Positions 3,714-36,296 of a stretch of DNA of 44,331 bases are shown one piece after another (within the stretch, counting starts at the first letter, position 1; every line of letters starts with the position of its first letter). The notes below the pieces were generated by a model. That model saw only the letters and a program-made list of their open reading frames with translations. It was not told the DNA's origin and ran no database searches. The position numbers and the translations under genes were made by a program. Source of the DNA: Candidatus Kapaibacterium sp. (GTDB lineage: Bacteria > Bacteroidota > Ignavibacteria > OLB7); contig JBFWSB010000002.1 in NCBI GenBank assembly GCA_050248595.1, positions 1 through 44,331 of the forward strand, read 5' to 3'.

Positions 3714-5426
3714 TTATTCCTTGAACACAAGGCAACGCATCATCTCCACTTTGTCGTTTACAGTGATCTTGCAGAAATACCATCCACTTGGAATTGAGGG
3801 TAAGGGCAGGGGGATGGCATGACTCCCCGCATCTACTTCTCTCTCCTCAACTACCTGCAAAACCTCGTTGCCAATACTATTGAAGAGGGTGATAGAGAGG
3901 ATCGCCGGATGTGCCAATTCAATTTGGATTGTTCCCCTTTCCCGAAGGGGCTGGGGAGCAATCGTCATCTTCAACTCCCCCTTACTATCACTTAGCACAA
4001 CACCACTACTATATCTCTCGATAAAATCTCCCGGAGTCAAATCCCGACCAACTAAGCCGGCATAATCTGGAGCGTAGTGATCTGCCCTGAAAACTGTGTT
4101 TGCCGTCCCTCCACCCATCCCAGGAGGGAGACGATCTCCCTGAGTAAGTGGTCCACTTGCTATCACTGGATTGATATACTCCCAGACAATCTCACCTGTG
4201 GGAAGAACTTCAAAGAAACGGCCGTTATCCCCCTCGCAGATCAGTGTGTTGCCGTTGGGAAGGCGACCAGCTCCTGAAATGTTCGACGAATAGAAGTCGG
4301 TAGGATTCGGAGCCGTGTAGCTCCAGAGAATGTTGTTGGGGCCGTAAGGACTTCCCTGCACAAGGGTGTAGCTTCCCTCGGGCGTAGCAGGGGGAACGAT
4401 CTCATCAACCGAAGAGTAGTTTCCATCACGACGACGCACACCATTATTGAAGATCATGATATTGTTAGCTCCCGGTAAGTCAGGTGCAATCCACTCCGCG
4501 TCGTGTTGCGAGAAGAGTTGTTGATCCTCAACACTGCCAGCTCCATAGTTGGCTGGATTTCCCCAACGGTAGAGGATATCTCCCCCCTTGCCACTTCTTC
4601 CGCCTGTATGCATGGCCGCTTCCTCAGTAGTTGTGCTGTGGTCGATAATCCATACTTCGTTCAGGTTGTGCAGACTGAGCAAAATCTGGTCGAGCGTTGG
4701 ATTGTAGTCGATGGAGTTCGCGTGCAACCAGTCAGCCGAACCATTCCCAGTAACACGATTCAGATCGATAAGCTCAGGGTGCTCACTCACCACGCCGTAA
4801 TTTTCTTTGGTAGGATCATACTCTTGCACCAGATGATCCCACGCATGCCACTCCCAAACGATTCTCCCTTCACTCTGGCCAACAGGTTCAACTTCAATGA
4901 TATGGTCTGGCCACAACTGATTGTCAGGCAAGAGTGAAGGATCTCTCCCTGCACTTATCGCCTCCTCACTCGACTTCACTTCCCACGCAATCATCAACAC
5001 GTTGCCGTTCGGCAATCGCTCAATGTCGTGATGCTGACGATATGTAGAGCTTGAGTAGGGATACTCCCAAACGAGATTCCCCTCCCAGTCAAACTCCTGC
5101 ACTAATCCACCTGCCCCACCTGTAGCACCGAAGACATTCCCCCCTTGGGTTGGCCTATAGTTTGCCGTGCGGAGGAGATGGCCACTCTCAAGCAGATAGA
5201 CCGAAAGCCCGGGCCGATACTCACTCTCCCAGGTGCGAACAGATCTCCCCTCGCTATCAATCAAGTATGTGGTGGTTGAACTCATTGGCGCAAAGAGAGT
5301 ATACCCATCGGATGCTCCCTCCTTACTAAATATCAACCCAACTGTTCGATCTTGCGCCGAGGCAGAAAACGACGGAAGAAGAATAGAGAGGAGTAGAAGG
5401 GGAATAATGAAATGTGAGTTGTTCAT
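3714..5426 (-). CDS. Arylsulfotransferase (ASST)-like beta-propeller protein with a T9SS C-terminal sorting domain
   Basis: 570 aa. Signal peptide: MNNSHFIIPLLLLSILLPSFSASAQD. ASST-like motifs: DGYTLFAP...TYLIDSEGRSVRTWES, LLESGHLLR, HHDIERLPNGNVLM. The last ~85 aa (LSITLFNSIGNEV...GWYFCKITVNDKVEMMRCLVFKE) fit the T9SS type A sorting domain pattern. Confidence 0.8.
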   Translation of the reverse strand: MNNSHFIIPLLLLSILLPSFSASAQDRTVGLIFSKEGASDGYTLFAPMSSTTTYLIDSEGRSVRTWESEYRPGLSVYLLESGHLLRTANYRPTQGGNVFGATGGAGGLVQEFDWEGNLVWEYPYSSSTYRQHHDIERLPNGNVLMIAWEVKSSEEAISAGRDPSLLPDNQLWPDHIIEVEPVGQSEGRIVWEWHAWDHLVQEYDPTKENYGVVSEHPELIDLNRVTGNGSADWLHANSIDYNPTLDQILLSLHNLNEVWIIDHSTTTEEAAMHTGGRSGKGGDILYRWGNPANYGAGSVEDQQLFSQHDAEWIAPDLPGANNIMIFNNGVRRRDGNYSSVDEIVPPATPEGSYTLVQGSPYGPNNILWSYTAPNPTDFYSSNISGAGRLPNGNTLICEGDNGRFFEVLPTGEIVWEYINPVIASGPLTQGDRLPPGMGGGTANTVFRADHYAPDYAGLVGRDLTPGDFIERYSSGVVLSDSKGELKMTIAPQPLRERGTIQIELAHPAILSITLFNSIGNEVLQVVEEREVDAGSHAIPLPLPSIPSGWYFCKITVNDKVEMMRCLVFKE

Positions 5427-5610
5427 ATAACATCAGTGATTGTATGTACGAGTTGCATTACGTCAATCTACGGCACTATAGACATGTATCGAAGAGAGTT
5501 TATTCCCCACAGAACAGATTATGTCGGAGAGTCGAGGAGTCAGGTGTCGACTCTCGACTTCTTGACTTGCATTCAACCGTTGAGAAGAGTAACTTCACTC
5601 TACGTTATTT

Positions 5611-5853
5611 ATGCTCCAGAAGATATTCCACATAACGCTTTGCTCTCTTCTTCTCTTCACCTACGGTGCAGAGAGGTTGCTCCCCTGTACTGGAGAGTGG
5701 GATGTTGACTGCCACAACGGAGAAGAGGAGATCGCTTCTCTCTCCACCTGTTCAGCAGCCGACCAGACAGATCACGATCACTCCGACGACACAGACTCTC
5801 ACTCCGACGGAGATTGTGTCTGCCCTTGCCACGCACCTTCAACCGAGATTTAA
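5611..5853 (+). CDS. Small Cys/His/Asp-rich pre-protein upstream of the czc pump (putative metal-binding)
   Basis: 80-aa ORF. It has a hydrophobic N-terminus (ITLCSLLLFTY), then LPC, then an acidic tract with DHDHSDDTDSHSDGD, then a C-x-C-x-C-H cluster (DCVCPCH). It lies 261 nt upstream of czcA on the same strand. It resembles small LPC...HDH...CxC proteins that I recall upstream of czcA in Bacteroidota (possibly DUF6660; unverified). Confidence 0.5.
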   Translation: MLQKIFHITLCSLLLFTYGAERLLPCTGEWDVDCHNGEEEIASLSTCSAADQTDHDHSDDTDSHSDGDCVCPCHAPSTEI

Positions 5854-6114
5854 ATGCAGGTAAACCCCCTACTCCCTCAACTCCGCACAAACTATTGAAG
5901 GACTTCCTTCAGTCTCATTCACACAACGCTCTCTCCTCCCGACCATATTCCTATAGTATAACTCCAGTTTACATCGCTACTCCTGATTCGACTCTGTCAC
6001 ATTATTGATTGACGGCATCGAACCTGTCTGCTACGCTCTATGCTTTTTCTCTGCTGCTGAGCCGTGGCTTGTCGCTTCGTATTCACTTTCACCAAATCTG
6101 AACTGGAAAATTCT

Positions 6115-9100
6115 ATGCTGAACGGAGTTATTGCTTTTTCGCTGCGGCATCGGGTGCTGGTGCTCTTCTGCACGGGAGCACTTGTTGTCGGGGGAGTTAT
6201 TGCCTTCTCCCGTCTACCGATTGACGCAGTTCCCGACATCACAAACAATCAAGTGCAGATACTGACGAACGCTCCGGCTCTCTCGGCTCTGGAGATTGAA
6301 CGCTTCGTCACTTTCCCAATAGAACTCTCTGTGAAGTCCCTCCCCGACATGGTAGAACTTCGCTCCCTCTCTCGTCCCGGTCTGTCGGTGATTACCGTCG
6401 TCTTCGAGGATAGGGTAAATACCTACTTCGCGCGACAACTGATTCTGGAGAAGTTACGGGAGATTGAGGAGACCCTTCCCGATGGTGTGGAGCGTCCAGA
6501 GCTTGGTCCGGTCTCCACCGGACTTGGAGAGATATTCCGCTACGTTGTTCGGGATACAACCAACCGCTATTCTCCAATGGAGTTGCGAACGATTCAGGAC
6601 TGGATTGTTCGCCGTGAACTGTTAGGAGCGGATGCCTTAGCGGAGGTAAACTCGTTAGGGGGTGAACTGAAGCAGTACCAGATTTTGGTCGACCCAGATC
6701 GACTTGCGAACTACGATATCTCACTGCGGGATGTCTTTCGCGCAGCAACTGAGGCAAGCGATAATGCCGGTGGAGCCTACATCGAAACCGGGCCGGAACA
6801 ACTATCTGTTAGATCAGTTGGGCTAACTACTACGGTTGATGATATTCGGGAGAGTGTCATCGGAGCCTACTCCGACGGAACGCCGCTTCGGATAGGAGAT
6901 GTAGCGGAGGTGACAACTGGTCCGGCTATTCGCTTCGGCTCTGCTTCGCAAGATGGGAGAGGAGAAGTTGTGGTCGGTATCGTCATGCAACTGAAGGGGG
7001 CAAACGCTCGGGTTACGGACAACGGAGTGAAGGAGCGGATCGAGGAGAACAAGCCGCTGTTGCCGGAGGGGGTAGTGATTGAGCCGTTCTACGACCGAGA
7101 GGCGTTGGTAGATAGAACAATCGAGACTGTCCTGATGAACCTAATTGAAGGGGCGTTGCTCGTTGTCGGCATTCTTCTCCTCTTTCTGGTAAGCCTTCGA
7201 GCCGGATTGATTGTAGCATCAGTAATTCCCTTAGCCATGTGCTTTGCAGGAATCATGATGCTCCTGAGTGGACAGAGTGGGAACCTGATGTCTCTCGGCG
7301 CGATTGACTTCGGCTTAGTTGTGGATGGATCGTTGATTATCGTGGAGAATATCCTCCGCCTGATGGATCGCAGATTCCGCGATGGGACATCATCTTCTAT
7401 CACCTCGGGAGAGATGCGCCAGTTAGTCTACGAGGGGAGCGTTGAAGTGCGGACTGCGGCGCAGTTCGGCGAGATTATCATCATCGTAGTCTACCTTCCA
7501 ATTATTACCCTGCAAGGGATCGAAGGGAAGCTCTTCAGACCAATGGCACTCACCGTCACCTTCGCCTTGATTGGTGCTCTCCTCCTCTCCATAACCTACG
7601 TTCCGGCGATTTCATCTCTGCTGCTGCGAGGGGAGAAACGTGTGCGCCACTCCCCAATTATCGAGTGGATCCGCCGCGGCTACACCCCCCTGCTCAACTG
7701 GGGACTGCGGAATCGCCCCGCAATTATCGGCACTGCTTTCGGACTTGTTCTGTTAGCTCTTTTCGGCTTTACCCGTCTTGGCGGAGAGTTTATTCCGAGA
7801 CTCGATGAAGGTGATATTGCGATGCACCTGATTCGGCTTCCATCAATCTCACTGAGTGAATCGCAGAAGATTGCAACTGCTGTGGAGAAAGAACTGATGA
7901 CCTTCCCAGAGGTGAAGACCGTTGTCTCCCACACCGGACGTGCCGAGGTCTCCACCGACCCAATGGGGTTCGAGTTGGCCGACGTTTTCATCATGCTGCG
8001 CGAGGAAGATGAGTGGACAACAGGGAGAACGAAGGAGGAACTTGTTGAGGCGATGGCGGAGCGGATGAAGAAGTTTCCCGGCGTTGGCACACAGTTCTTG
8101 CAGCCGATAGAGATGCGAATGAACGAACTGATTGCCGGAGCACGAGGTGATGTGGTGGTGAAGATTTTCGGAGAAGCCTACGAAACGTTGTCACCGGCAG
8201 CCGAAAAGATTAGTGGAATTATCCGAACGCTGGATGGAGCCGCCGACGTGGCAGTAGAGCAGACACGTGGCCTCTCCCAACTTGTTATCCGTCCCGACCG
8301 AAATGCTCTCGCCCGCTACGGCCTGAGCGTTGCCGAAGTAAACCACGCGGTTGGGATGGCCGTTGCCGGGGAGAAGGCTGGAACGGTCTACGAAGGGGAG
8401 CAGCAGTTTGATTTAGTTGTCCGCTATCGCGCAAGTGCTCGCACAAACGTTGATGCAATTCGGGAGATACTGGTGAAGACACCTGTCGGAGCACTCGTCC
8501 CTCTGAAAGAGCTTGCTTCTGTCAAGATTGAGGAGGGGCCTGCGCAGATTTCACGAGAGGGAAGCTCTCGGTTTACTACAGTGCAAGCAAACGTGCGGGG
8601 ACGTGACGTAGAGAGCTTCGTGGAAGAATTGCGGGAGCATGTGGAGCGAGAGGTTGAACTTCCCCCCGGCTACCGAATCGACTACGGTGGAGAGTTTAGG
8701 AACCTTGAAGATGCCTCGCAACGCCTTCTGTTTGTAGTGCCGATCGCACTCTTCTTGATCTTCGCTCTCCTCTACCAAACGTTCGGCTCGTTCCGACTCG
8801 GCCTGCTAATTTTCCTCTGCATTCCAATGTCTGTTGTTGGTGGAGTAGCTGCACTCTTAATTCGAGGGATGCCCTTCTCAATCTCTGCCGGTGTCGGCTT
8901 CATTGCCCTCTTCGGCATTGCTGTGTTGAACGGCATTGTGATGGTTGCGGCAATTCGCAAATATCAACTCTCTGGTCTTTCGCGAAGAGAGGCTGTGACC
9001 TTAGGAGCCGAAGAGCGACTCCGCCCGGTAATCACTACCGCAGCACTTGCTGGCTTCGGCTTCCTCCCGATGATGCTCGCAACAAGTGCAGGAGCCGAGG

Positions 9101-10476
9101 TACAACGCCCCTTAGCAACCGTCGTGATCGGAGGGCTTATCTCAGCCACACTCCTTACGCTGATCTTACTGCCGATTATCTACGAACGTTTTGGGGATGA
9201 TCCTTCCACAGCTTCAACAGATGAGAAGGGAAAAGAGAAACGATCTTCACGACTCTGGAAGGGAGGAGTAGGCCTCTTCCTTCTCCTCTGCTTTAGCATA
9301 GGGACGCCTTCACTTTCTGGGCAAACAGTACTGACCCGACAGTTACTGATTGAACGGGGACTGGCCACTTCACCAGAACGGGATCGAGTCCATGCTTCGG
9401 TAGAACGGGTTGATGCAGAAGGGAGAAGTGCAAACATTCTTCCCCCAACTTCTCTCTTCTACGAAGTAGAGGAATATCCGACAGGCTCACTCCCCGGTGA
9501 ACTGACAACATCAATCGGCATCAGTCAACCGTTCCCATTCCCTTCTACCTGGGGGGCAAACAGTCGGGCTAAGCGTGCGGCTTTCTTGGCTGCTGAGGGA
9601 GAACGTGCAGTTGTTGACTGCAACATTGTGGGGAAGGCAAACCAGTTGTGGCTTGACCTAATTCACGCTTCATGGCACTTGAACCTGACCGACACGATGA
9701 CCGCAAACGCTCGGCGCATTGCAGAGATTATCCGCTTCCGCCGCACCGTTGGCGAGATTGACGCTCTGGAGGCAACGCAAGGTGAAATCATTCTCGCCGA
9801 AGCACAGCGCGACTCCATTGCCGCCCACAGTCGCTTTGTTGGAGCAATGCGCCGCGCACGTTCCTTTATGGCCGCTGCTGAGGGTGAAGAATTTGTTCTC
9901 CGGGTTGACTCTATCTCTCTGTTCAAACGGCAGAACCGGGAAGAACTGATAGGTCAACTGCGAGAGCATCATCCTCACCTTCACTTACTTGAACGTCAGA
10001 TTGAAGCACTTGAAGCACGCAACGATGTTCTCCGGGCAAGCCGTCTCCCATCCTTTGAACTCGAGTTGCGAAGCCAGCGAGTGGGGGGAGAAGGGGGATA
10101 TATCGGAGCCGGCATTCGGCTGAACGCTCCGATTACCCGATGGTTTGGCGATCCGAAAGGAGATGCCTTACAAGCTGAGGAAAGAGAGCTTCGGGCGGAG
10201 ATGCGCCAGAGAGAACGTGATTTGATTCGCCAACTGGATGACCTGCTGATTGAACGAGAGGAGAAGGAGGAACTGATTAAGCACTATCAAACAACTCTTC
10301 TGCCGGCAGCACGAAGTGCTTGGCAAATTGGCCTACGCCTCTACCAAGAGGGAGAGATTGGATATCTCGGAGTCGTCTCCGCCCACAACACTCTTGTCAC
10401 TTACGAGCGTGAGTGGTTGGAGAGAGAACTTGATGTAGAGCGGATTGACCTACAGATCGAAGGCTTGGTGAAGTAA
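6115..10476 (+). CDS. czcA: CusA/CzcA-family heavy-metal RND efflux pump fused in frame to a CzcC/TolC-like outer-membrane factor
   Basis: The track ORF starts at GTG 6064. I prefer ATG 6115 (MLNGVIAFSLRHRVLV, a typical CzcA N-terminus).
- aa 1 to ~1027 are a full RND permease, ending LLPIIYERF.
- Next comes the linker DDPSTASTDEKGKEKRSSRLWK and a signal-peptide-like segment GGVGLFLLLCFSIGTPSLSGQ.
- The remaining ~385 aa have OMF character: LTRQLLIERGLATSPERDRV..., coiled-coil-rich, ending LQIEGLVK.
- There is no stop codon and no in-frame ATG/GTG/TTG at the junction (9181-9330). Confidence 0.9.
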   Translation: MLNGVIAFSLRHRVLVLFCTGALVVGGVIAFSRLPIDAVPDITNNQVQILTNAPALSALEIERFVTFPIELSVKSLPDMVELRSLSRPGLSVITVVFEDRVNTYFARQLILEKLREIEETLPDGVERPELGPVSTGLGEIFRYVVRDTTNRYSPMELRTIQDWIVRRELLGADALAEVNSLGGELKQYQILVDPDRLANYDISLRDVFRAATEASDNAGGAYIETGPEQLSVRSVGLTTTVDDIRESVIGAYSDGTPLRIGDVAEVTTGPAIRFGSASQDGRGEVVVGIVMQLKGANARVTDNGVKERIEENKPLLPEGVVIEPFYDREALVDRTIETVLMNLIEGALLVVGILLLFLVSLRAGLIVASVIPLAMCFAGIMMLLSGQSGNLMSLGAIDFGLVVDGSLIIVENILRLMDRRFRDGTSSSITSGEMRQLVYEGSVEVRTAAQFGEIIIIVVYLPIITLQGIEGKLFRPMALTVTFALIGALLLSITYVPAISSLLLRGEKRVRHSPIIEWIRRGYTPLLNWGLRNRPAIIGTAFGLVLLALFGFTRLGGEFIPRLDEGDIAMHLIRLPSISLSESQKIATAVEKELMTFPEVKTVVSHTGRAEVSTDPMGFELADVFIMLREEDEWTTGRTKEELVEAMAERMKKFPGVGTQFLQPIEMRMNELIAGARGDVVVKIFGEAYETLSPAAEKISGIIRTLDGAADVAVEQTRGLSQLVIRPDRNALARYGLSVAEVNHAVGMAVAGEKAGTVYEGEQQFDLVVRYRASARTNVDAIREILVKTPVGALVPLKELASVKIEEGPAQISREGSSRFTTVQANVRGRDVESFVEELREHVEREVELPPGYRIDYGGEFRNLEDASQRLLFVVPIALFLIFALLYQTFGSFRLGLLIFLCIPMSVVGGVAALLIRGMPFSISAGVGFIALFGIAVLNGIVMVAAIRKYQLSGLSRREAVTLGAEERLRPVITTAALAGFGFLPMMLATSAGAEVQRPLATVVIGGLISATLLTLILLPIIYERFGDDPSTASTDEKGKEKRSSRLWKGGVGLFLLLCFSIGTPSLSGQTVLTRQLLIERGLATSPERDRVHASVERVDAEGRSANILPPTSLFYEVEEYPTGSLPGELTTSIGISQPFPFPSTWGANSRAKRAAFLAAEGERAVVDCNIVGKANQLWLDLIHASWHLNLTDTMTANARRIAEIIRFRRTVGEIDALEATQGEIILAEAQRDSIAAHSRFVGAMRRARSFMAAAEGEEFVLRVDSISLFKRQNREELIGQLREHHPHLHLLERQIEALEARNDVLRASRLPSFELELRSQRVGGEGGYIGAGIRLNAPITRWFGDPKGDALQAEERELRAEMRQRERDLIRQLDDLLIEREEKEELIKHYQTTLLPAARSAWQIGLRLYQEGEIGYLGVVSAHNTLVTYEREWLERELDVERIDLQIEGLVK

Positions 10477-10516: not shown

Positions 10517-11728
10517 ATGAAAAAGAGAATTGAGACCATCCCCTACCGATATATCGCAACGATGTTGTTGCTCACACTCTACACACTCTTTCAAATCAGT
10601 TGCCAAAACAACCCAGAAGATGGTGAACACTCCCACGATGACCCACACCACGAGCAGGAGCATGGGGAGGGGGAAGTTGGCGCGGAAGCAGGACACGTAG
10701 ATGTTGACCCTGCCGTTGGGCGAGAGAATGGAATTGAAACGGACATCGTCAGACGTGTGAGTATCCCCGTAGCACTCTCCCTTCCCGGCATCGTTCGTCC
10801 TGAAGAAGATGGGATTGCCCAGGTGGGAACAATTGTTCCGGGTCGGGTGGTAAAACTCTACGCATCGGAAGGGGCGTATGTCTCTCGGGGGGCAACGATA
10901 GCGGAAATCGAAACGCTTGAGATTGGGAAGGCACGAGCAGAATACCTGAACGCGAAGGCACGAGAGGAACAGACTCGGCGGGCACTGGAGCGGCAGGAGA
11001 GGTTGACGGGGGAACAGATCGGGGCGGAGCGGGCACTGGAGGGGGCGAAAGCTGACTACGATCAGGCTGTTGCCGCCCGACAAGAAGCAGAGGCACACCT
11101 GAAGCTCTTCGGCATCGATCCGGTGAAAGCGTCGGCATCGTTTGCAAACCGGATGAGAATTACCGCGCCGATCTCCGGTACAATCTCCAATCGCTCAGTA
11201 ACATTGGGAGAGTTCGTTGACCTTACAGACAATCTCTACACAATTGTCAACACCGCGACAGTTTGGATTGAGGCGAAGGCAACTCCTACACAGGCGGCAT
11301 CACTCACCATCGGTAGTTCGGGGGTTGCCCGTAGTCCCTCCGGCGAAAAAGTCTCGGGACGAGTCACCTTCATTTCACCCCTCGTCGATCCCGAATCCAA
11401 AACTGTCACGGTTCGCTTTTCTGCACCGAACCCCAACGGCATCTTTCGTCCCGGAACGTTTGTCACAACCGAGTTTTCGGGAGATGCTCAGCGGGAGGGG
11501 ATTGCGATTCCGACTGAAGCCCTTGAGCGTGAGGGGGGACGCTTCTATCTCTATCGTGAAGAAGAGCCGAACCACTTTGAGAGAATAGAGGTTGAGGTAG
11601 AGGAAGAACTTGAAGATCGAACGATTGTGCGGGCCGGAGTTGCCGAAGGAGATCGCATCGCGGTGAAGGGGGTCTTCTATCTTCGCTCAATGCGCTCCGC
11701 CGGAGAGTTGAGCGAGCACCACCATTAG
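10517..11728 (+). CDS. czcB: Efflux RND periplasmic adaptor (membrane fusion protein, CzcB/HlyD family) with a His-rich N-terminal tract
   Basis: 403 aa. It has an N-terminal signal/anchor, a His/Asp/Glu tract (EDGEHSHDDPHHEQEHGEGE), a coiled-coil hairpin (EIGKARAEYLNAKAREEQTRRALERQERL...) and the MFP signature ITAPISGTISNRSVTLGEFVD. It starts 41 nt after the pump gene. Confidence 0.9.
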   Translation: MKKRIETIPYRYIATMLLLTLYTLFQISCQNNPEDGEHSHDDPHHEQEHGEGEVGAEAGHVDVDPAVGRENGIETDIVRRVSIPVALSLPGIVRPEEDGIAQVGTIVPGRVVKLYASEGAYVSRGATIAEIETLEIGKARAEYLNAKAREEQTRRALERQERLTGEQIGAERALEGAKADYDQAVAARQEAEAHLKLFGIDPVKASASFANRMRITAPISGTISNRSVTLGEFVDLTDNLYTIVNTATVWIEAKATPTQAASLTIGSSGVARSPSGEKVSGRVTFISPLVDPESKTVTVRFSAPNPNGIFRPGTFVTTEFSGDAQREGIAIPTEALEREGGRFYLYREEEPNHFERIEVEVEEELEDRTIVRAGVAEGDRIAVKGVFYLRSMRSAGELSEHHH

Positions 11729-12110: not shown

Positions 12111-15100
12111 ATGAAGAAGAGTCTACTTCTTGCGTTAGCATCTGTGATGGCAGTTGCAGGGTTGTGGCTTCTACAGCCAACCGACGTAGAGGCGTGCGGG
12201 GGAACTTCGAACCCACCACGCTGTAATCGAACAATCTGGCTCGGGAAGTCAGTTCCACACACAGTCGCTATCCGTCCAGATGGAAGCGCGACGATTACTA
12301 TGGTGCTCCTCCCCTACATTTCGTGGGACAGGAATTGTCCAAACCCGAACGCAGCCTCTCTTTCAATTTCTCTTCGATGCCTTCCCGTAGGGGGTGGGCA
12401 AGCTGCCGCACTTGGGCCAATTACTGTTCAGGTAGGGACACCATCACAGCCGGGACGCCAACGCTTGGCTAATGGAACGAATACGTTTACCCTTCAAGCC
12501 CCCGCCGGTACGTTCAATCCAAGTATCCGATATCGCTGCCTGATTACTGGCACGTACAACGTCGGTTTCCCCTCTACTCCGAATGCCCCCCTCCCCTCTC
12601 CAATAATTACTGGCGTCGGCGATGCCACAGTCTGCATGGTTCCAGAATCTCCACTAAGCAAGGGGAACGATATTCCCGAACTGAGCGTGAGGCAGATTAC
12701 ACCGGACAACAGTGAATTCCTTCGATGCCGTCGCGGCGACCAAGGGTTGATACACGTACTGGTGGAGAACAATCATCCAACGCAGAGTGTGACGCTGGAC
12801 CTTACGAGCGTGGGACGCCAAACTGCCGGACTTCCACTCGGCTTCTCGAACCTGCAAGCTGCATACGACAGTAGCGTCAGCGCAATTTCCAACCCAACAC
12901 CTGGAACCGACGTCTTCCCAGTTGCCTTTGCCGACACAATGGCTCCGAGCACAGTCTTGCCAGATGGAGACCCTTCTGCGGTCGACCCACAGGAACTGAA
13001 CAGAACGATTACGCTCGGCCCGTGCGAGTCGCGCATTATCACGATAGCCATTCGGAGCCACGGCATGTGTGCCGACGGTTCGTGCAACGAACGAGATATG
13101 ATCTTTGCCGGAACGTGGCAGAACGGCGATTCCGCAATTGGGTGTGCAAGTACTATGCTGCTTGTTGAATCTGTAAAATCGAAAACCCCACTCTGCGAAG
13201 TTCTGGACGAACTAAAAGTCTCTGACTCGGTACAAGCCCGGTTCAGTTCGGCACAGTACGTTGGCTTTCAAGGGCAGATTGAACACGCCTCAACCCACTT
13301 CGCCGGGAACGTAACTCCGCGAGAGCAGGTGCGGGCTACCGACTTAGCCGGAAGTGCCATCCCGGTAAACTTCCCACTCCCTACAAACGCAGCCGATTAC
13401 ATTCGCACCCCGGAGGTGTTAGTAAACACTGGCTACGTGCTACAAGGACGAGCACTCTGGCTCGACTTGGTTCCATTCCAGAATAATGTGACCATCTTCA
13501 ACCTCAACCAAGCAACGAAGGCTGTGGAGATACCCTATATCGTCGGCTCGCCGTCGCAGGCAGGATTTAATATCTCCTACAATGCTGGGAACGATAGCAT
13601 TACAGTTCTGGATGGGCAAGGGAAACAGGTATTCCGCGGAACGCTCACGAACCTAAAGGCAAACCCCCCTCGTGGGTTGCGTGTGGACGTGAACACGTGC
13701 CGCCGCTTTACTAAGCGAGAGAATTATGGCGGAGCACCCTGGCTTGTCAGCCTTCCGAAAAGTCTGAGCAAACTGCTAAGCCAGACATCGGTAAAGAATA
13801 TGCGCGAGCCAATACAGATTTTGGAGGGATTGCGAGAGGAGGATATTGCGTGGGACTTCAACGTGCGAGGGAGTGGGGTGAACGTAGAGAGGAGTAAAGA
13901 CAACTTGGCTGTCTTTGTCTTCGAGCCACAAGAGATTCAAGCACCGGCAAACAGAACAGCGGTGATCTGGACGGAGTTTACGTCGAAGGAAGCAATCAAC
14001 ACTCCTCTCCTATTTCCTATTGCCGTCAGAGTAAAACCGCTCCCTGAACCACTTACCGAGATAACGCTGGAACAGGTTGACTTCATTGCTCCGTTCAACA
14101 GACCGAACTCTCACCAAGGGATATTCTCAGCTACATACGATCCGGTTCCCCGCTTGCAGTTCCTGAACGTTGTTGCTCGGCGTCCGGGAGTTCCACGTTC
14201 GGAGAGTTGGATTGTGCAGAATATGCCGCTGATGCCTTTCAGCAGATCGGAGATGGTAACCTATTGGTTCGACCTTGCCGACCTCGGCTTACCTGATGGA
14301 GTTGATGTGGAGTTGCTCGACATTTCCGTTACTGTAGGAGATGATCTCCTTACAGCTATACCAGCATCCCCCCTCTACATACCGATCGACGTTGGGGATT
14401 TTGTTTACGATGTCTACGATGGCGCACCGGAGCTTACTCCCGATCCGTTCCGAACGACACGACTTCCTGAAATCAAGTGGCCGAAGCTCACGACAGTCGA
14501 TACAGTCTACCGAGGCTGCAACGTTCCGAACATCGACTTGGATTCTTCACGGTTCAACCCGACTTCACGCCCCGGCTACGCTGGCGACAAGAATGCTTGC
14601 GGTCCGGCAGCAGCATCGAATAGTCTGGTTTGGTTGCAACGAACACATCCAAAAATTGACTCTTCACTCGGTCACCGAGATATGACCGAAGAGCTGAGTA
14701 AGCTGATGGGACGGCAGAATGAGCTTGGCGTGAATACGCTGCAACTTGTGCGAGGCAAACTTGCGTTGATCGACAAGTACAAACTTCCAATTCGTGTGAA
14801 GTTCCAGAGCAAGTGGTTCAGAAAGGATACGAACGTTGCCTCACCCGATACTACATACCGCCACGAAGGCCGGAACGACAATGGATCAGATAATGCGTGG
14901 CCAACGTGGGATTATTTCTGGGGAGAGATGAACCACGGTGAAGATGTGGAGATTCTCTTCGGCTGGTACGACAGCACAGGAACGCGGCGTGGAGGGCACT
15001 GGGTTGTTGCCTCTGGAGCGATTAACCTGAACGGTCAAGTCCGCCGACTTTGGGTGAAGGATGATAAGAGACAGCGTGACTCCGGAGGGACACGCCAGCA

Positions 15101-16760
15101 ACTGCTAACGTGGGATACGACGGCGCAGGGCATTCCGGTCTTGCGAGGCTGGGCAAACACAACGAGAGAACTCCGCATTGAGAGTGTTGTCTCCGAGAGC
15201 TACGATTCAACTATCACATTCCCGAACGCGCCAACCGAAGGTATCCGGTTCTCGCAGTTCAACTTTGTGGAGCCGTTCAACGTACCTCGCTCCCCACTTG
15301 GGAAGATGACCTGGACAACGGAGCCGGGGAACAGGACGAGGTTCCTCAATGTATACGCCCGAAAGACATTGGACGATCCTCCCGTCTGGCTTGTGCGCAA
15401 CATGGTGCTCCCTCCATTCTCTCTCTCTGAAGAGATCGACTACTGGATTGACTTCACACAACTCGGCTTTGCAAGGGGAGAACGGGTTGAAGGATTTTGG
15501 ATGTTGCCAGAAGTCAACGACGAAGTTCTGGTTGCGTTCACACCTGGATCACTTTCCGATAAATGGGAAGAGCATACCGTTTCACCATTTGATTATGCTG
15601 TCGGCTCCGGCTACACGCCGAACGCATCGACAGTTCCAGGATTTGGCAATCCTCCTTCTGGAGGGTTCGGCAGACCAGCCCGCGTTGATTCGACGTATCG
15701 GGGATGTACGATCCCGAACATCGACCTCGATTCTTCCAGAAACCGACCAAGCTCTTCCACCGGCTACGCTGGCGACTGGAATGCTTGCGCTCCTGCTGGC
15801 TGTGCGAATAGTTTGGAGTGGTTGATTGCGAACAATCCGAACTTGAATCTAAACAGAACACATCGTGAGAAACTGGAGGAGCTGAGTGCTCTGATGAAAC
15901 GGACGGCTGGGAATGGTGCGGGGGATCAAGGTGTGATTGAAGCAAAACTTGCCTTCATCGACCGACACAAGCTCCCGATTCACGTAAAGTTCCAGTGCCG
16001 TTGGCTTGGAACAGACAACATTAACTCTCCCGATACAACGGGAAGCAATGGCGACCCAAATCGTGGTGGATATGGCCACAAGGGGGAGAACAGGAAGAGT
16101 AGTGCAAACGACTGGCCAACGTGGAGCTTCTTGGAGAACGAGATGAAGAATAATGAGGATGTGGAACTCGGGATTATCTGGTACACGCGGTCTGGAAGAC
16201 CAACCGGCAAAGCCCACATCGTCACGGCAAGTGGAGTGAGTACTGCGAACGGCAGACGGAGGATTTGGTTCAAAGATGACCAGGATCAGAGGAGGAGTGG
16301 AGGGATGTCGCAGACGCAGGCCACGTGGGATACGACAAGTTTCGGTGCGGGAATTATCCCCGAGCTGTCGCTTGGCGACACGATTGCCTATATCTCGTCG
16401 ATATTCTCCGAGAGCTACGACCCGAGCGTTCGATTCGACACGATAGCCGGAACAAGTTCGGTTCCAGTAATCGGCAACGCTCCCGACTTCAAGCTCACGA
16501 TTCTACGCAACCCAAGCAGTTCAAGTGAATCGGTTGAGTTCCTCTTCACGCTACCGCGACCGGCAGATGCCGAGGTGGTGATCTACGATCTGTTAGGGCA
16601 TGAGATATACTCTCTCCCGGCAGAATCATTTGAAGCTGGAATACATCGCTTAGAGTGGAATGGCAGAGAAGAGGGAGGAGCAAAGACCGCGGCGGGAACA
16701 TACTTCGTAGTTCTCCGCGTCGGCGACGCCGAACAGACTGCGCGGATGGTAAGAGAGTAG
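12111..16760 (+). CDS. Giant T9SS cargo protein with two tandem papain-like (C39-like) Cys/His modules
   Basis: 1549 aa. An AGGAG lies ~9 nt upstream of the ATG, and the signal peptide is MKKSLLLALASVMAVAGLWLL. aa 651-1043 and 1044 to ~1440 are tandem copies of a ~393-aa module. Each copy contains:
- YRGC.[VI]PNIDLDSSR...GYAGD.NAC.PA..ANSL.WL (Cys830, Cys1226)
- a downstream G.H[WI]V.ASG (His963, His1369)
- KDD..QR.SGG
- a closing SESYD
The last ~90 aa (VEFLFTLPRPADAEVVIYDLLGHEIY...GTYFVVLRVG) form a T9SS sorting domain. Confidence 0.85.
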   Translation: MKKSLLLALASVMAVAGLWLLQPTDVEACGGTSNPPRCNRTIWLGKSVPHTVAIRPDGSATITMVLLPYISWDRNCPNPNAASLSISLRCLPVGGGQAAALGPITVQVGTPSQPGRQRLANGTNTFTLQAPAGTFNPSIRYRCLITGTYNVGFPSTPNAPLPSPIITGVGDATVCMVPESPLSKGNDIPELSVRQITPDNSEFLRCRRGDQGLIHVLVENNHPTQSVTLDLTSVGRQTAGLPLGFSNLQAAYDSSVSAISNPTPGTDVFPVAFADTMAPSTVLPDGDPSAVDPQELNRTITLGPCESRIITIAIRSHGMCADGSCNERDMIFAGTWQNGDSAIGCASTMLLVESVKSKTPLCEVLDELKVSDSVQARFSSAQYVGFQGQIEHASTHFAGNVTPREQVRATDLAGSAIPVNFPLPTNAADYIRTPEVLVNTGYVLQGRALWLDLVPFQNNVTIFNLNQATKAVEIPYIVGSPSQAGFNISYNAGNDSITVLDGQGKQVFRGTLTNLKANPPRGLRVDVNTCRRFTKRENYGGAPWLVSLPKSLSKLLSQTSVKNMREPIQILEGLREEDIAWDFNVRGSGVNVERSKDNLAVFVFEPQEIQAPANRTAVIWTEFTSKEAINTPLLFPIAVRVKPLPEPLTEITLEQVDFIAPFNRPNSHQGIFSATYDPVPRLQFLNVVARRPGVPRSESWIVQNMPLMPFSRSEMVTYWFDLADLGLPDGVDVELLDISVTVGDDLLTAIPASPLYIPIDVGDFVYDVYDGAPELTPDPFRTTRLPEIKWPKLTTVDTVYRGCNVPNIDLDSSRFNPTSRPGYAGDKNACGPAAASNSLVWLQRTHPKIDSSLGHRDMTEELSKLMGRQNELGVNTLQLVRGKLALIDKYKLPIRVKFQSKWFRKDTNVASPDTTYRHEGRNDNGSDNAWPTWDYFWGEMNHGEDVEILFGWYDSTGTRRGGHWVVASGAINLNGQVRRLWVKDDKRQRDSGGTRQQLLTWDTTAQGIPVLRGWANTTRELRIESVVSESYDSTITFPNAPTEGIRFSQFNFVEPFNVPRSPLGKMTWTTEPGNRTRFLNVYARKTLDDPPVWLVRNMVLPPFSLSEEIDYWIDFTQLGFARGERVEGFWMLPEVNDEVLVAFTPGSLSDKWEEHTVSPFDYAVGSGYTPNASTVPGFGNPPSGGFGRPARVDSTYRGCTIPNIDLDSSRNRPSSSTGYAGDWNACAPAGCANSLEWLIANNPNLNLNRTHREKLEELSALMKRTAGNGAGDQGVIEAKLAFIDRHKLPIHVKFQCRWLGTDNINSPDTTGSNGDPNRGGYGHKGENRKSSANDWPTWSFLENEMKNNEDVELGIIWYTRSGRPTGKAHIVTASGVSTANGRRRIWFKDDQDQRRSGGMSQTQATWDTTSFGAGIIPELSLGDTIAYISSIFSESYDPSVRFDTIAGTSSVPVIGNAPDFKLTILRNPSSSSESVEFLFTLPRPADAEVVIYDLLGHEIYSLPAESFEAGIHRLEWNGREEGGAKTAAGTYFVVLRVGDAEQTARMVRE

Positions 16761-22616: not shown

Positions 22617-24203
22617 TTATCGCTTCTGTAGAATCAATTCGATTTGGTGGTCGCTCCTTCGTCCGGCGGGCAAACTATTGTAGAGGTTTGGGTCAACCAC
22701 GACCTCCGGCTCGGGCAACAGGTCCACTCGTAGAGCTTGGCCTCTCCCCTTCATTATTGAGTGGAGTTCTGCCGCTAAAGCGTGCATCTGTTCGATAACT
22801 GCCGGAGAGATATCAGTTCCACAAACATTCCGAGGCTGCAACACGATCCGATCTCCCAACTCTGCCTCCTCCACAACCTCCAGCAGCAAATCACGATCTG
22901 CCTGGCTTGGCAAATTCTGATTTGTCGGCAAGTCCGTTCGGATAACTTCCCTCCCGTTGTCGTATACAAGCCGAAGAGAGCGTTGAACCCCAAGCTCGAC
23001 CTGATCGGCAACTTCCACAATTGCTCCCGATGAGTCCGACACTCTCAACTCTGCAACCAACGGCTGCACCGACTCACTTACTTCATCGTTTGCAATCTTC
23101 CAATTCAGCTCCGATAGGTTTTCAGCACTTTGGCTGGAGATATGCCCAATCTCTTTCTCACCATAGATAAAGGTGATCTCCCACTTCTCAATTCCCTTAG
23201 ATGATTCCCACTCCGGATTAATCAGGAGCGTGGGAGGATATATCTTCCGCTCAATCTGCCACTCTTCCCCAACCCCACCACGAAGAACCTCAACAACGTG
23301 AATGATTGAGTCAGGAACTTGCTTCTCAGGTGAAGCTGAAATGCCGAGATCGATAGTTGCAGAGAGAGGGATTACTGGCAACAACGGTTGTGGAGGTGAC
23401 TTCCCCACATCTGTTAAGAGCGAGAAGCCAATCGACGCACTGATTCCACTCTTTTCCGTTAGGCTGCTGAGACTATAACTCTCGGCACGAATGGAGAGGT
23501 GTGGCATAAAAGTCAGGCTATAGTTTATCGGCAACATCGTCTCGAGCGAAAGGATTCCTCCCCCTCCCCACTTTGATTGGCTTACCTCTCTCCGCGGCAT
23601 CGATTGCTCTCTGAGACCGTTGGCAAAACGATAGAGATTGTTGGTAATATAGTCGGTCTGTCGTGTCGTTCCACTTATAGCGTAGCTCACTCCACCGCCG
23701 ATGCGGAGATTTAATCGATCCATCAGTTTCAGGCTACCAAGAAATTCGAGTCGACTGGCGACTGTTTGCTCCACAAATCGATATTCGTGATCGAACTGAA
23801 TCAGCCCCGCTTCTGCATCGGCAATCGTAAAGGGTTCAGCCGATTTGGTAAGGTGGGTCTGAGAAACATCAATCAACAATCGTCCCGATAGACCAACCGT
23901 AGGTGAGAAGAACGAGGGGAGATAGAGTTCCGCCCCAAACGAACCTCGCTCTATACTCCCTTCGCTGAAGGTTCCACAATCGGATGAGCCGGGGAAGACA
24001 TTAAGGGGGTGGTGGTAGTAGCCATATCCAACATCAGCATATATCCCAACCATGAGAGGAGAACCCTCACCTGAGTCAACCCCTTCTCTCTCCTCTGTTG
24101 TTGTCTGAGCAGAGAGGTTGTAGCCCCACCCCACCACTATAGCAAGTAGCAGCACCCACAGAATTTGTCGAGAGGTTATGTGATAGGAACTGTTCCGTTT
24201 CAT
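22617..24203 (-). CDS. Putative outer-membrane protein: N-terminal beta-barrel plus a degenerate OmpA-like C-terminal domain
   Basis: 528 aa with a signal/anchor (ILWVLLLAIVVGWGYNLSAQ). aa ~50-265 show alternating hydrophobic beta-strand patterns (GIYADVGYGYY, LRIGGGVSYAISG, ISASIGFSLL), followed by a Pro-rich linker. The C-terminus (RIVLQPRNVCGTDISPAVIEQMHALAAELHSIM...RRSDHQIELIL) has the layout of an OmpA_C domain but with poor consensus. It starts 8 nt after the upstream gene. Confidence 0.65.
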   Translation of the reverse strand: MKRNSSYHITSRQILWVLLLAIVVGWGYNLSAQTTTEEREGVDSGEGSPLMVGIYADVGYGYYHHPLNVFPGSSDCGTFSEGSIERGSFGAELYLPSFFSPTVGLSGRLLIDVSQTHLTKSAEPFTIADAEAGLIQFDHEYRFVEQTVASRLEFLGSLKLMDRLNLRIGGGVSYAISGTTRQTDYITNNLYRFANGLREQSMPRREVSQSKWGGGGILSLETMLPINYSLTFMPHLSIRAESYSLSSLTEKSGISASIGFSLLTDVGKSPPQPLLPVIPLSATIDLGISASPEKQVPDSIIHVVEVLRGGVGEEWQIERKIYPPTLLINPEWESSKGIEKWEITFIYGEKEIGHISSQSAENLSELNWKIANDEVSESVQPLVAELRVSDSSGAIVEVADQVELGVQRSLRLVYDNGREVIRTDLPTNQNLPSQADRDLLLEVVEEAELGDRIVLQPRNVCGTDISPAVIEQMHALAAELHSIMKGRGQALRVDLLPEPEVVVDPNLYNSLPAGRRSDHQIELILQKR

Positions 24204-24211
24204 AGTTCAAC

Positions 24212-25639
24212 TCAGGGGCGAACGAATGGGACGAGCAAAACATCGTCAGCAAATTCAAGACGAACGGCGTAGAGTCCGCGAGGGAGTGCTCCAACGTTTA
24301 CTCGCACATTCTCTTCCACGCCACTCCCCCTATCCAACTCTACTCTCCCCCGATTCTCTCCGAGCACGTCAATCACATCCAAGTGCCCAGCAACGCCGTC
24401 AGGAGGGATGAAGCCAACCAGAAGTTCGTTTCCGGTTGGATCGACACCAATTGAGGAGATCAGCACTCTCCGTCCAAAACCTTCGGAGCCGATTGTACAC
24501 CCCTCCAGCAAAACAAGTCCGAAAATCTCTTCGGTTGTAGCAGCCGTCTTTGTTCTCACCGTCACATCTCCCCTCACCTCATTCTTCGGCAGAGCAGTTG
24601 AAAGTCCAACCCAGTCAATAAGGAGGAACTCTCTTTCAACGCTTGTAATTCCTTCCACGCTTGTTACTACTACTCGTTGTTCAGACTCACTTACCTGCTC
24701 AACCACCACATCAACATTAGGAGCAGAGGGGCGAACTCCTTGAAACCAGAGGGAGCGAGGGTTATACTTCAAATTCAGTTCAACGGCGGTTATGGTGTTG
24801 GCATTCCCCAACGCAGAATCGACCTTCAGCCGCATCGTCACCACCTCTCCAACATGTCCGTTGACCGTATCCAACTGAGCTTTCAATAACGTATCCTGTA
24901 GAGATGAGAACGCCTCACCTTGCAACTCAACGAGAAATACTCCCTTATCTGTCTGAAATTGATAGAGGGCAACGTGAGTCCCTGTGGAGAGTGGCTGATA
25001 GTTGAAAGAGAGAGAGGTTGGCTCCTGATTGCGAAGTTTGATTCCTCCAGCAATTGAGTTTTGTAGAACGAAGTAAGAAGTGTCAGGGTCTTGAGAGCTA
25101 AGTCCGGTGATGGTAACGTCCCCCCCCTCAGGAGTAAGAGTAATCGAGGCGTCGGCACTCTTCCCTACCTCAGTTGGCGAGAACTGCAGTCGGTAAATCG
25201 AATCAAGCTCTTGCACTCGAGTTGGATCTGAACCTCCTCCAATCAACACTACTGAATCAATTCCAAAGTTCGTTCTCACCTTTGCCCAAGCTGAGTGGAA
25301 GTAGGAGTCAAGCGATTGAAATTCAACGTAGACTCGTGCAAATTGATTTTTTGGGAGACGAAATGGAGTAGAGGGAAAAGAGAGGGAAAAACCTGGATCT
25401 CCATTAAGAAAAATTTCGTCAACTCTGAGAGAATCGACACCAGCCCCCACGTTCGCAACCACAAACGAATCGATTCGCACTACACCGACTTGCGTTGTTC
25501 CGAAGTCAATCGTATCCCGGTCAACAAAGAGTTCGGCTTGTGCAGAAGTGGAGAGAGGGAGAGCAATCAGGCTGAATACAACCCAACACCAGAATGGTGG
25601 ACGAACAGCTCTCCGTACTCTACATGTCAGTAATCGCAT
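24212..25639 (-). CDS. Secreted Ig-fold-rich protein (choice-of-anchor-D-like N-terminus) with a T9SS sorting domain
   Basis: 475 aa with a signal peptide (WCWVVFSLIALPLSTSAQA). The N-terminal segment LFVDRDTIDFGTTQVGVVRIDSFVVANVGAGVDSLRVDEIFLNG resembles PapD-like or choice-of-anchor-D repeats. The C-terminus (LDVIDVLGENRGRVEL...LPRGLYAVRLEFADDVLLVPFVRP) fits a T9SS CTD. Confidence 0.7.
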   Translation of the reverse strand: MRLLTCRVRRAVRPPFWCWVVFSLIALPLSTSAQAELFVDRDTIDFGTTQVGVVRIDSFVVANVGAGVDSLRVDEIFLNGDPGFSLSFPSTPFRLPKNQFARVYVEFQSLDSYFHSAWAKVRTNFGIDSVVLIGGGSDPTRVQELDSIYRLQFSPTEVGKSADASITLTPEGGDVTITGLSSQDPDTSYFVLQNSIAGGIKLRNQEPTSLSFNYQPLSTGTHVALYQFQTDKGVFLVELQGEAFSSLQDTLLKAQLDTVNGHVGEVVTMRLKVDSALGNANTITAVELNLKYNPRSLWFQGVRPSAPNVDVVVEQVSESEQRVVVTSVEGITSVEREFLLIDWVGLSTALPKNEVRGDVTVRTKTAATTEEIFGLVLLEGCTIGSEGFGRRVLISSIGVDPTGNELLVGFIPPDGVAGHLDVIDVLGENRGRVELDRGSGVEENVRVNVGALPRGLYAVRLEFADDVLLVPFVRP

Positions 25640-32661: not shown

Positions 32662-32835
32662 TCTCTATTCTGCATGTGCAAAACATAGAAATCTCGGTAG
32701 AACAACTACTCCCTCATCTGGTCAGCTATCGATTCAAGATTCTGCTTGTTAGAGTTCAGCTTTACAAGCGGTCGGTCCACCACATACAACATTCATGTAT
32801 TGAATATCCCTATCACCAGAAAACAGGATTTAATC

Positions 32836-35800: not shown

Positions 35801-36296
35801 AAGGTTCTCTGCATAGAACCGATCCCCTTCTACCTCCACGGGAATCTTTGCACACACCACGTTGTTTCCTCGGAACAATAGTTTCGAAGAGAAAAAATCC
35901 GATCATCTGGCCAATCCTCGGCTCGGCACTGCTGACAGTGATCTTCGGTTAATTAATCGAAGGCGAGCGCAAACGTGGCCACTGATATTCCTATACCAAA
36001 CAAGAGTAAGGAAGATGTATTGTCGAATTGAAAGGAGTGTATTCTCTTCTGTCACTCCCCTCGCTCGGGATCGGGAGAGGAGCTGGGGGAGAGGGCGAAG
36101 AAAGGAAACATACCTCTTCGCAAATTGAATTCGGTATTAGAAACCTCAAAAGAGAAGAAGAGGATTGAGAGGTTAGAACTAAACACTTTTCTTTTTTTTT
36201 TAGAAAAGCACCCTGTTCAATGGTGAGAGTTTCGATAACTTAAGTGCCTCAAGAAAATCTTGAGTCTAAAAAATGTTCACTTAACACTCATTGACT

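Follow-up and report, generated by a model that had tools for sequence, protein, structure and literature searches.

Bacteria that expel metals across two membranes can do so with pumps made of an inner-membrane permease, a periplasmic adaptor and an outer-membrane channel. In the genome of Candidatus Kapaibacterium sp. (GTDB lineage Bacteria; Bacteroidota; Ignavibacteria; OLB7), two of these parts are encoded by one gene: a full CzcA-type resistance-nodulation-division (RND) permease and a full TolC/CusC-type outer-membrane factor (OMF) are confirmed to be fused in a single open reading frame (ORF). The gene lies at 6115–10476 of the stretch analysed here (the window), which comprises 44,331 nucleotides and corresponds to positions 1–44,331 of contig JBFWSB010000002.1 (GenBank assembly GCA_050248595.1). 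On present evidence the gene probably specifies a natural tripartite heavy-metal efflux polyprotein, in which the two parts are joined by an internal signal peptide and the OMF is predicted to be released by signal peptidase I (SPase I).

A pump and a channel in one reading frame

On the forward strand, the frame has no stop codon from a GTG at 6064 and an ATG at 6115 through to 10476, and translation from the ATG gives a product of 1453 amino acids plus stop. The choice of ATG is supported by the alignment of position 1 of the TIGR00914 model to residue 1 of the ORF; moreover, a protein identical in sequence to that of the window is present in NCBI, so the NCBI gene call has the same start. 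Pfam ACR_tran (PF00873) matches residues 6–1024 (E = 6.5e-278, model positions 2–1018 of 1021), whilst TIGR00914, the model for heavy-metal RND permeases of the CusA/CzcA type, scores 1168 bits (cut-off 701.45) and is aligned over positions 1–1034 of 1051. Pfam OEP (PF02321) then matches in two stretches reaching up to residue 1451, at 78.8 bits (cut-off 22), a score that becomes 84.3 bits when the C-terminal part is searched in isolation. These matches bear out the preliminary description of the gene, according to which a complete CusA/CzcA permease continues without a stop into an OMF, and the peptide strings that it quoted are all present: LLPIIYERF, ending at nucleotide 9192, KEKRSSRLWK, GGVGLFLLLCFSIG and TPSLSG followed by Q. 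In order, the junction consists of LLPIIYERF (to residue 1026), GDDPSTASTDEKGKEKRSSRLWK, GGVGLFLLLCFSIG, TPSLSG and Q(1070)TVLTRQ.

The permease ends with LLPIIYERF after transmembrane helix 12 (TM12), and its hydropathy peaks fall into two clusters, at residues 5–553 and 871–1022. TM4 contains the sequence DFGLVVDGSLIIVEN, a motif of the DFGx3DGAx3VEN type in which alanine is replaced by serine. This motif is reportedly that of the divalent-cation (Zn/Co/Cd/Ni) groups of heavy-metal efflux (HME) RND proteins, the Cu/Ag group of CusA being said to carry A-x-G...D-A-A...I-E-N in its place. By its residues, the TM4 motif of the window protein is thus of the divalent-cation HME type, unlike that of the Cu/Ag CusA group. 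The 12-helix core recognised by homology is followed by a 13th hydrophobic segment (residues 1050–1063) rather than by a cytoplasmic C-terminus, so the C-terminus of the pump product is predicted to be periplasmic.

Searching the PDB by sequence with the OMF part gave a barely significant link (CusC, E = 0.14), and comparison of folds was therefore needed. An AlphaFold2 (AF2) model of residues 1000–1453, made with 78 homologues, has a mean pLDDT (predicted local distance difference test) score of 89.9, with most blocks of the OMF above 90. The model begins with the TM12 helix, continues through a disordered linker (pLDDT below 50) and a short low-confidence helix over the hydrophobic segment (model residues 49–62), and from about model residue 72 forms a confident TolC-type protomer with equatorial elements, helices of 65–70 residues and four beta strands (model residues 114–120, 132–141, 314–324 and 327–338). 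When the OMF model was compared with the PDB using Foldseek, CusC (3pik) was the best match (E = 6.6e-16), with further matches to TolC, SilC, OprM, OprN, VceC, CmeC and MtrE; for CusC, TolC, SilC and OprM, E values were in the range 1e-13 to 1e-16 and about 410 of about 430 target residues were aligned. As modelled, the OMF part is complete, possessing the OEP repeats, four strands for a 12-strand barrel, the alpha-barrel helices and the equatorial domain. Where it departs from other OMFs is in its mode of translation: instead of being made separately behind an N-terminal signal peptide of its own, it has a signal that is internal, at residues 1038–1069.

Signal-peptide character of the junction

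The segment that joins the two domains has the composition of a Sec/SPase I signal peptide, with a basic n-region (KEKRSSRLWK), a hydrophobic core or h-region of 14 residues, where about 7–15 are usual, and a c-region (TPSLSG) that places Gly at −1 and Leu at −3, positions at which such peptides have small or neutral residues. The n-region belongs to a basic linker of 23 residues, the last 12 of which include six Lys/Arg and one acidic residue. Its position is not that of a Sec signal peptide, which is N-terminal: here the segment comes after 12 TM helices and 1026 residues.

To describe the junction in the family, 123 fused sequences were anchored on TM12. The linker has a median length of 14 residues (range 9–50) and its last 12 residues contain on average 4.1 Lys/Arg versus 0.8 Asp/Glu, whilst the uncharged stretch after it is 12–24 residues long, with a median of 17. 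A typical membrane-spanning helix has about 20 residues; judged by its sequence, the uncharged stretch is of signal-peptide length and below that of such a helix. A candidate cleavage site, defined by a regular expression of our own as [AGSTVCLI]-x-[AGST] then Q no more than 23 residues from the hydrophobic core, is found at 121 of the 123 junctions, versus 448 of 3168 (14%) control windows of equal size taken from the same proteins. The likeness to a signal peptide remarked on in the preliminary description is therefore not peculiar to the window, the equivalent segment having the same look in these 121 relatives. When the sequences are aligned on the site, Lys prevails at −22 to −19 and Leu at −18 to −7, followed by Ser/Pro/Thr/Asn at −6 to −4, A, L, S or V at −3 and A (75%), S (12%) or G (12%) at −1, a profile that reads as a textbook Sec signal peptide. 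Two relatives described below illustrate this: L002 has STASG then QTT at the equivalent site and P0144 has NKKSNFKMNSHIKATVFCFFVLLPAISFA then QTNDI.

The residue at +1, Gln1070, conforms to the Bacteroidetes Q-rule, by which SPase I substrates expose a Gln that is then cyclised to pyroglutamate (PMC5837995); the Q-value given for Ignavibacterium album is 77% (PMC5837995). In the window itself, seven other ORFs possess an N-terminal signal peptide ending in A or S and followed by Q (Table 1), indicating that the organism from which the window comes obeys the rule.

The likely source of the segment emerged when the OMF part alone was searched against 1.84 billion representative proteins. The closest matches were fragments of fused proteins (P0121, P0002, P0123 and P0004), and next came more than 100 free-standing proteins of about 415 amino acids. 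Residues 5–30 of these free-standing OMFs align onto residues 27–50 of the query, so that their N-terminal signal peptides coincide with the internal segment; that of P0133, for example, is MKSLYLLLLCTCFLSTGLNG (ending FLSTGLNG) then QTTVLS. From this positional match we infer that the internal segment is the signal peptide retained from a once-separate OMF gene.

Conservation of the fusion and of gene order

Whether relatives share the fusion was a question raised by the preliminary description, which had also supposed that long CzcA ORFs occur in other genomes of the Fibrobacteres–Chlorobi–Bacteroidetes (FCB) group. The answer is positive in both respects, and the fusion withstands the test of refutation by orthologues that the preliminary description had itself proposed. 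Single ORFs are found at 92%, 69% and 43% identity, and the junction is spanned by each of the best 120 of 6645 database matches. An Ignavibacteria metagenome-assembled genome (MAG), here L001, encodes a single ORF of 1470 amino acids with 89% identity over the query, and in L002 the ORF has 1491 amino acids and 69% identity; both are followed by a gene for an adaptor of about 400 amino acids. The DNA of the L002 junction has diverged freely with the frame intact. A third protein from Ignavibacteria, P0144 (1447 amino acids, 43% identity), is likewise a single ORF and is colinear with the window protein from end to end.

The database matches were obtained with a 553-residue query spanning the junction, searched against a collection of 5.8 billion proteins, and the 6645 are not necessarily all fusions. 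Amongst the best 120, each covers at least about 20% of the query, with most covering 93–100%, and 110 of the 120 carry both PF00873 and PF02321. All 120 are shorter than 1000 amino acids, which we take to be a property of the listing or a consequence of fragmentary contigs. The idea that they form a distinct short class was rejected: two such proteins located on long contigs proved to be a copy truncated by an insertion sequence (IS; locus L005) and a copy split by frameshifts (locus L006). Sources named among the matches listed are Balneolaceae/Balneolales, Spirosoma, Pontibacter, Persicitalea, Daejeonella, Parapedobacter and Segetibacter, together with Cyclobacteriaceae, Cytophagales, Sphingobacteriales, Flavobacteriaceae and Bacteroidales, and it is these junction-spanning proteins that bear out the expectation of long CzcA ORFs in other FCB genomes. 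In the same matches, the OMF part is named in one UniRef label only ('TolC family protein').

Gene order is also shared. The order given in the preliminary description, A::C and then B, is that of the window, where the adaptor gene occupies 10517–11728, and is common to L001, L002, L005 and L006. In L005 (Spirosoma sp. KUDC1026, 6150–8863), an IS encoding a DDE_Tnp_1 transposase replaces the first ~830 codons of the fused gene. In L006 (a Balneolaceae MAG, 4501–8878), the fused gene and several of its neighbours are split by frameshifts in an indel-rich assembly, the frameshifts probably arising from assembly indels, and a small DUF6660 gene is found upstream of the fused gene. Taken together, the sequences show that the fused gene, followed by that for the adaptor, has been kept in Ignavibacteriota, Balneolales and many Bacteroidota, and the common A::C-B order argues for one old fusion event. 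The OMF part of the window protein is no closer to the fused OMFs of Bacteroidota than to free-standing OMFs.

In a Candidatus Azobacteroides MAG (L003, 6025–7464), a 479-amino acid ORF runs from the last pump helices through an internal signal peptide (VFPVPAQ then QTITL) into a full OMF; this could be what is left of a fused gene in an endosymbiont whose genome is reduced, or a means of expressing the OMF only. A Bizionia locus (L004) was considered as an orthologue and rejected: it is an operon of the multidrug type, in the order B-A-C, whose OMF is a lipoprotein, and it shows the unfused state only. Unfused systems also exist in these phyla, examples being the operons of B. thetaiotaomicron comprising CzcA and TolC that are listed in PMC10434189.

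Proposed maturation of the precursor and its alternatives

If the internal segment acts as its sequence suggests, the ribosome, having delivered the 12 helices of the pump to the Sec translocon, would already be engaged there when the segment emerges. The basic linker would be kept in the cytoplasm (positive-inside rule) and the hydrophobic core would be inserted N-in/C-out after TM12 as a 13th helix, with the 384-residue OMF part threaded co-translationally into the periplasm. SPase I would then cut between G1069 and Q1070 (nucleotides 9321/9322), exposing Gln1070, which in this lineage would probably be cyclised to pyroglutamate. The freed OMF would move to the outer membrane and trimerise, whilst the pump would retain a 43-residue C-terminal tail made up of the linker and helix 13. 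Pump and channel would in this way be made in equimolar amounts, in agreement with the 3:3 pump:channel ratio of the A3B6C3 complex, with the channel delivered beside its pump. As to whether the segment is a 13th TM helix or a cleaved export signal, the evidence favours both together. Such a gene would most simply have arisen from neighbouring czcA and czcC genes that lost the stop and start codons separating them but kept the signal peptide of czcC.

Four other explanations have to be weighed against this one. The probability that the fusion reflects faulty sequencing or assembly, or that two genes were joined recently in the manner of a pseudogene, is negligible. The window is metagenomic (it is matched in landfill, bioreactor and sludge metagenomes) and some relatives are damaged, L006 being frameshift-split and L005 IS-cut. 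Against this, 9055–9640 is covered by independent contigs of 4611 and 586 nucleotides from two public runs with zero substitutions, indels or joints, excluding the frameshift or misassembly at the junction that the preliminary description had wished to see checked; a 92%-identical, gap-free protein of 1453 amino acids is found on five contigs (the longest of 1.5 Mb) from three NCBI accessions; and the frame is kept both down to 43% identity and in the best 120 of the 6645 database matches. It is also very unlikely that the OMF is produced mainly by independent internal initiation, as a gene within a gene, with the read-through fusion incidental. About 20 Bacteroidota relatives have K-M-K just ahead of the h-region, resembling a former or still active start, which might be vestigial or serve as a minor start. 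In the window, however, the frame lacks any ATG, GTG or TTG from codon 1004 (nucleotide 9124, inside TM12) to beyond codon 1108, as the preliminary description had maintained, and both alternative frames are riddled with stops across the junction. Neither L001 nor L002 has a Met in its junction peptide, the frame is open in every relative looked at, and an in-frame Met in the n-region, counted on protein sequences, is present in 38 of 121 relatives (31%), on a par with the 27% expected by chance.

That the chain stays uncleaved, with helix 13 tethering an OMF-like domain to the inner membrane and creating a covalent periplasmic/outer-membrane duct, is unlikely too. A hydrophobic segment could in principle serve as a signal anchor, and cleavage is deduced from sequence; but small-x-small then Q persists in 121 of 123 relatives while the surrounding sequence varies freely, the h-region is short (the median uncharged stretch being 17 residues) and the domain possesses four outer-membrane-barrel beta strands. 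Moreover, the first structured element of the OMF, in the equatorial domain, begins only ~8–10 residues after the helix. In the AcrAB-TolC (PDB 5ng5) and CusCBA pumps, the equatorial domain of the OMF is far from the inner membrane (well over 100 Å in 5ng5), and an uncleaved chain would thus be unable to put its barrel in the outer membrane. Release by another route, whether by lipoprotein signal peptidase II at Cys1059 (LLLC) or by an unrelated periplasmic protease, is highly improbable. There is a Cys within the h-region of the window protein (FLLLCFSIG), and many NodT-type OMFs are lipoproteins, the free-standing OMF of L004 (LTSC) amongst them. Lipoprotein processing at Cys1059 was nevertheless rejected: LLLC is not a lipobox, the Leu at −1 being disallowed, nor does it match the NodT-type lipobox [LVI][ASTVI][GAS]C; the Cys is missing in L002; and across the 123 relatives any Cys occurs in the stretch in only 21, with a lipobox-like sequence in only one.

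Several points weigh against release of the OMF by SPase I from an internal signal peptide. The −3 residue of the window protein is Leu, which is the second most common residue of the family at that position and not the classic Ala; the −1 and +1 positions were fixed in the regular expression from which the cleavage-site statistic comes; GTG and TTG starts in relatives are outside the reach of the Met count; and no RNA run was found with the locus. The benefit of fusion in stoichiometry or proximity may, furthermore, be a rationale rather than a result. With these points taken into account, cleavage at an internal signal peptide is still the explanation that we prefer for the window gene. As for the wider proposal, an FCB-wide class of tripartite metal pumps made from a polyprotein, in which the channel would be exported co-translationally at the translocon of its pump and released by SPase I with formation of pyroglutamate, leaving the signal peptide as a permanent 13th helix, we lean only slightly towards it.

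The adaptor and neighbouring genes

The adaptor gene downstream of the fused gene encodes a protein that scores 181.2 bits against TIGR01730 (cut-off 94.9) and matches HlyD_D23 (E = 1.6e-37); against TIGR00999 it scores 164 bits, under the 319.3-bit cut-off of that model. Its N-terminus (10517–10700) has a lipobox, FQISC, with a His/Asp/Glu-rich run, QNNPEDGEHSHDDPHHEQEHGEGE, right after the Cys. This run is likely to be a metal-binding N-terminal arm, and an adaptor N-terminus rich in His is in keeping with a metal substrate.

The fused gene is immediately preceded, at 5611–5961 on the forward strand, by a small ORF rich in Cys, His and Asp. It has a hydrophobic helix at its N-terminus, an LPC motif, a DHDHSDD stretch and CVCPCH, and there is no Pfam match to it. 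Counterparts of 112–116 amino acids are found at ~2790–3140 in L001 and ~270–610 in L002, and the position and layout of the ORF are those of the DUF6660 gene of the Balneolaceae locus L006. The window frame contains a TAA (5851–5853) and a TGA (5896–5898), with the conserved C-terminal sequence TTLSPPDHIPI still in frame after them; the ORF may represent an accessory gene for metal binding that was inactivated recently, or it may contain a recoding site.

Further downstream, 12111–16760 (forward strand) encodes a secreted protein of 1549 amino acids with two internal repeats of about 500 amino acids, each containing YRGC..PNIDLDSSR...GYAGD.NAC, and a C-terminal domain of the type IX secretion kind (FlgD_ig, with a weak CHU_C match); it has no other family match. 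On the reverse strand at 3714–5426 is a member of the arylsulfotransferase (ASST) family with a weak Por_Secre_tail (type IX secretion system) C-terminal domain.

Table 1. Features of the fused gene, its adaptor and Q-rule secreted proteins in the window
Feature	Position	Strand	Evidence
CzcA::OMF precursor, single ORF	6115..10476	+	ORF list, Pfam ACR_tran and OEP, exact NCBI protein
CusA/CzcA-family (HME) RND permease domain, aa 1-1026	6115..9192	+	TIGR00914, ACR_tran, hydropathy
TM4 motif DFGLVVDGSLIIVEN, aa 398-412	7306..7350	+	regular-expression match
Cytoplasmic linker and n-region, aa 1027-1049, GDDPSTASTDEKGKEKRSSRLWK (predicted)	9193..9261	+	sequence, AF2 disorder
h-region GGVGLFLLLCFSIG, aa 1050-1063	9262..9303	+	hydropathy peak, AF2 helix, alignment with free-standing OMFs
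c-region TPSLSG, aa 1064-1069, predicted cut at nt 9321/9322	9304..9321	+	site kept in 121/123 relatives
Mature OMF (TolC/CusC/CzcC type), aa 1070-1453 (predicted)	9322..10473	+	OEP (two matches), AF2, Foldseek
Periplasmic adaptor (CzcB-type membrane fusion protein), 403 aa	10517..11728	+	TIGR01730, HlyD_D23
Q-rule secreted ORF, ASST-family protein, SFSASA then QDRT	3714-5426	-	
Q-rule secreted ORF	22617-24203	-	
Q-rule secreted ORF	24212-25639	-	
Q-rule secreted ORF	27757-29226	+	
Q-rule secreted ORF	29306-30526	+	
Q-rule secreted ORF	32746-34293	+	
Q-rule secreted ORF	36291-37217	+	

Comparison with known systems

The window gene is an ordinary member of a large conserved class, and that class is apparently undescribed. 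The RND::OMF domain architecture is visible in databases but unnamed, the proteins being labelled 'CusA/CzcA family RND transporter'. We found no description of an RND::OMF fusion in the open-access literature, a scope that leaves TCDB and subscription journals outside. None was found in the consulted passages of PMC8277102, PMC4827864, PMC10434189, PMC6316836 and PMC8809574; the literature covered included a survey of outer-membrane protein fusions, a phylogenomic survey of TolC-like proteins and a 2021 Chem Rev review of tripartite pumps, which does not mention one. Because the fused proteins are named only as RND transporters, genomes that carry them seem to be without an OMF gene for that system, which biases counts of OMFs and of metal-resistance operons in the genomes and metagenomes of the FCB group.

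For transport across two membranes, tripartite RND pumps serve as a central model, and reviews treat the three parts as separate proteins. A conserved fusion raises the questions of what becomes of an outer-membrane protein exported co-translationally from an internal signal, whether a fixed 1:1 synthesis or local delivery aids assembly of the pump and what effect a 13th helix has on the RND trimer. If the scheme set out above is true, the gene would encode a bacterial inner-membrane/outer-membrane polyprotein of a kind for which we found no description, and the export of its outer-membrane protein would be obligatorily co-translational, possibly with each channel preferentially assembled onto its own pump.

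The closest functional counterparts are the CzcCBA, CusCBA and ZneCAB systems of Cupriavidus metallidurans and E. coli, which likewise comprise an HME-RND permease, an OMF of the CusC/TolC fold and a CzcB-type adaptor; like them, the window system presumably forms an A3B6C3 complex and exports divalent cations from the periplasm. Those systems, however, are encoded by three genes, most often arranged C-B-A, and their OMF begins with a signal peptide of its own, whereas in the window A and C share an ORF that precedes B (A::C-B), the signal peptide of the OMF lies within that ORF and a 13th helix is predicted for the pump. The free-standing TolC-family OMFs of the FCB group (~415–425 amino acids, e.g. 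P0127–P0268) share the fold and the mature N-terminus (Q, then L-x-L-x-x-A) with the OMF part of the window protein, and their signal peptide resembles its internal segment in length, composition and the A/G then Q site, but they are translated on their own and are only 19–28% identical to it.

For the proposed processing, one parallel is provided by viral envelope polyproteins cut at internal signals by host signal peptidase, such as the glycoprotein precursors of bunyaviruses (PMC7926653). There too, internal signal peptides direct translocation and set the points of cleavage in a multi-spanning precursor, but the setting is the eukaryotic endoplasmic reticulum and there is no homology, making this a mechanistic analogy only and one more distant than the bacterial case of FbcH. 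The FbcH protein of Bradyrhizobium japonicum is said to be a cytochrome b-c1 precursor that is cleaved by signal peptidase at an internal signal peptide, and by analogy it offers the nearest mechanistic precedent known to us. In FbcH, too, a polytopic protein of the inner membrane reportedly forms one chain with an exported partner from its complex, giving equimolar subunits, although the proteins concerned are unrelated to those described here and neither product of FbcH leaves the inner membrane. The part released from the window protein, by contrast, would have to cross the periplasm and assemble into the outer membrane.

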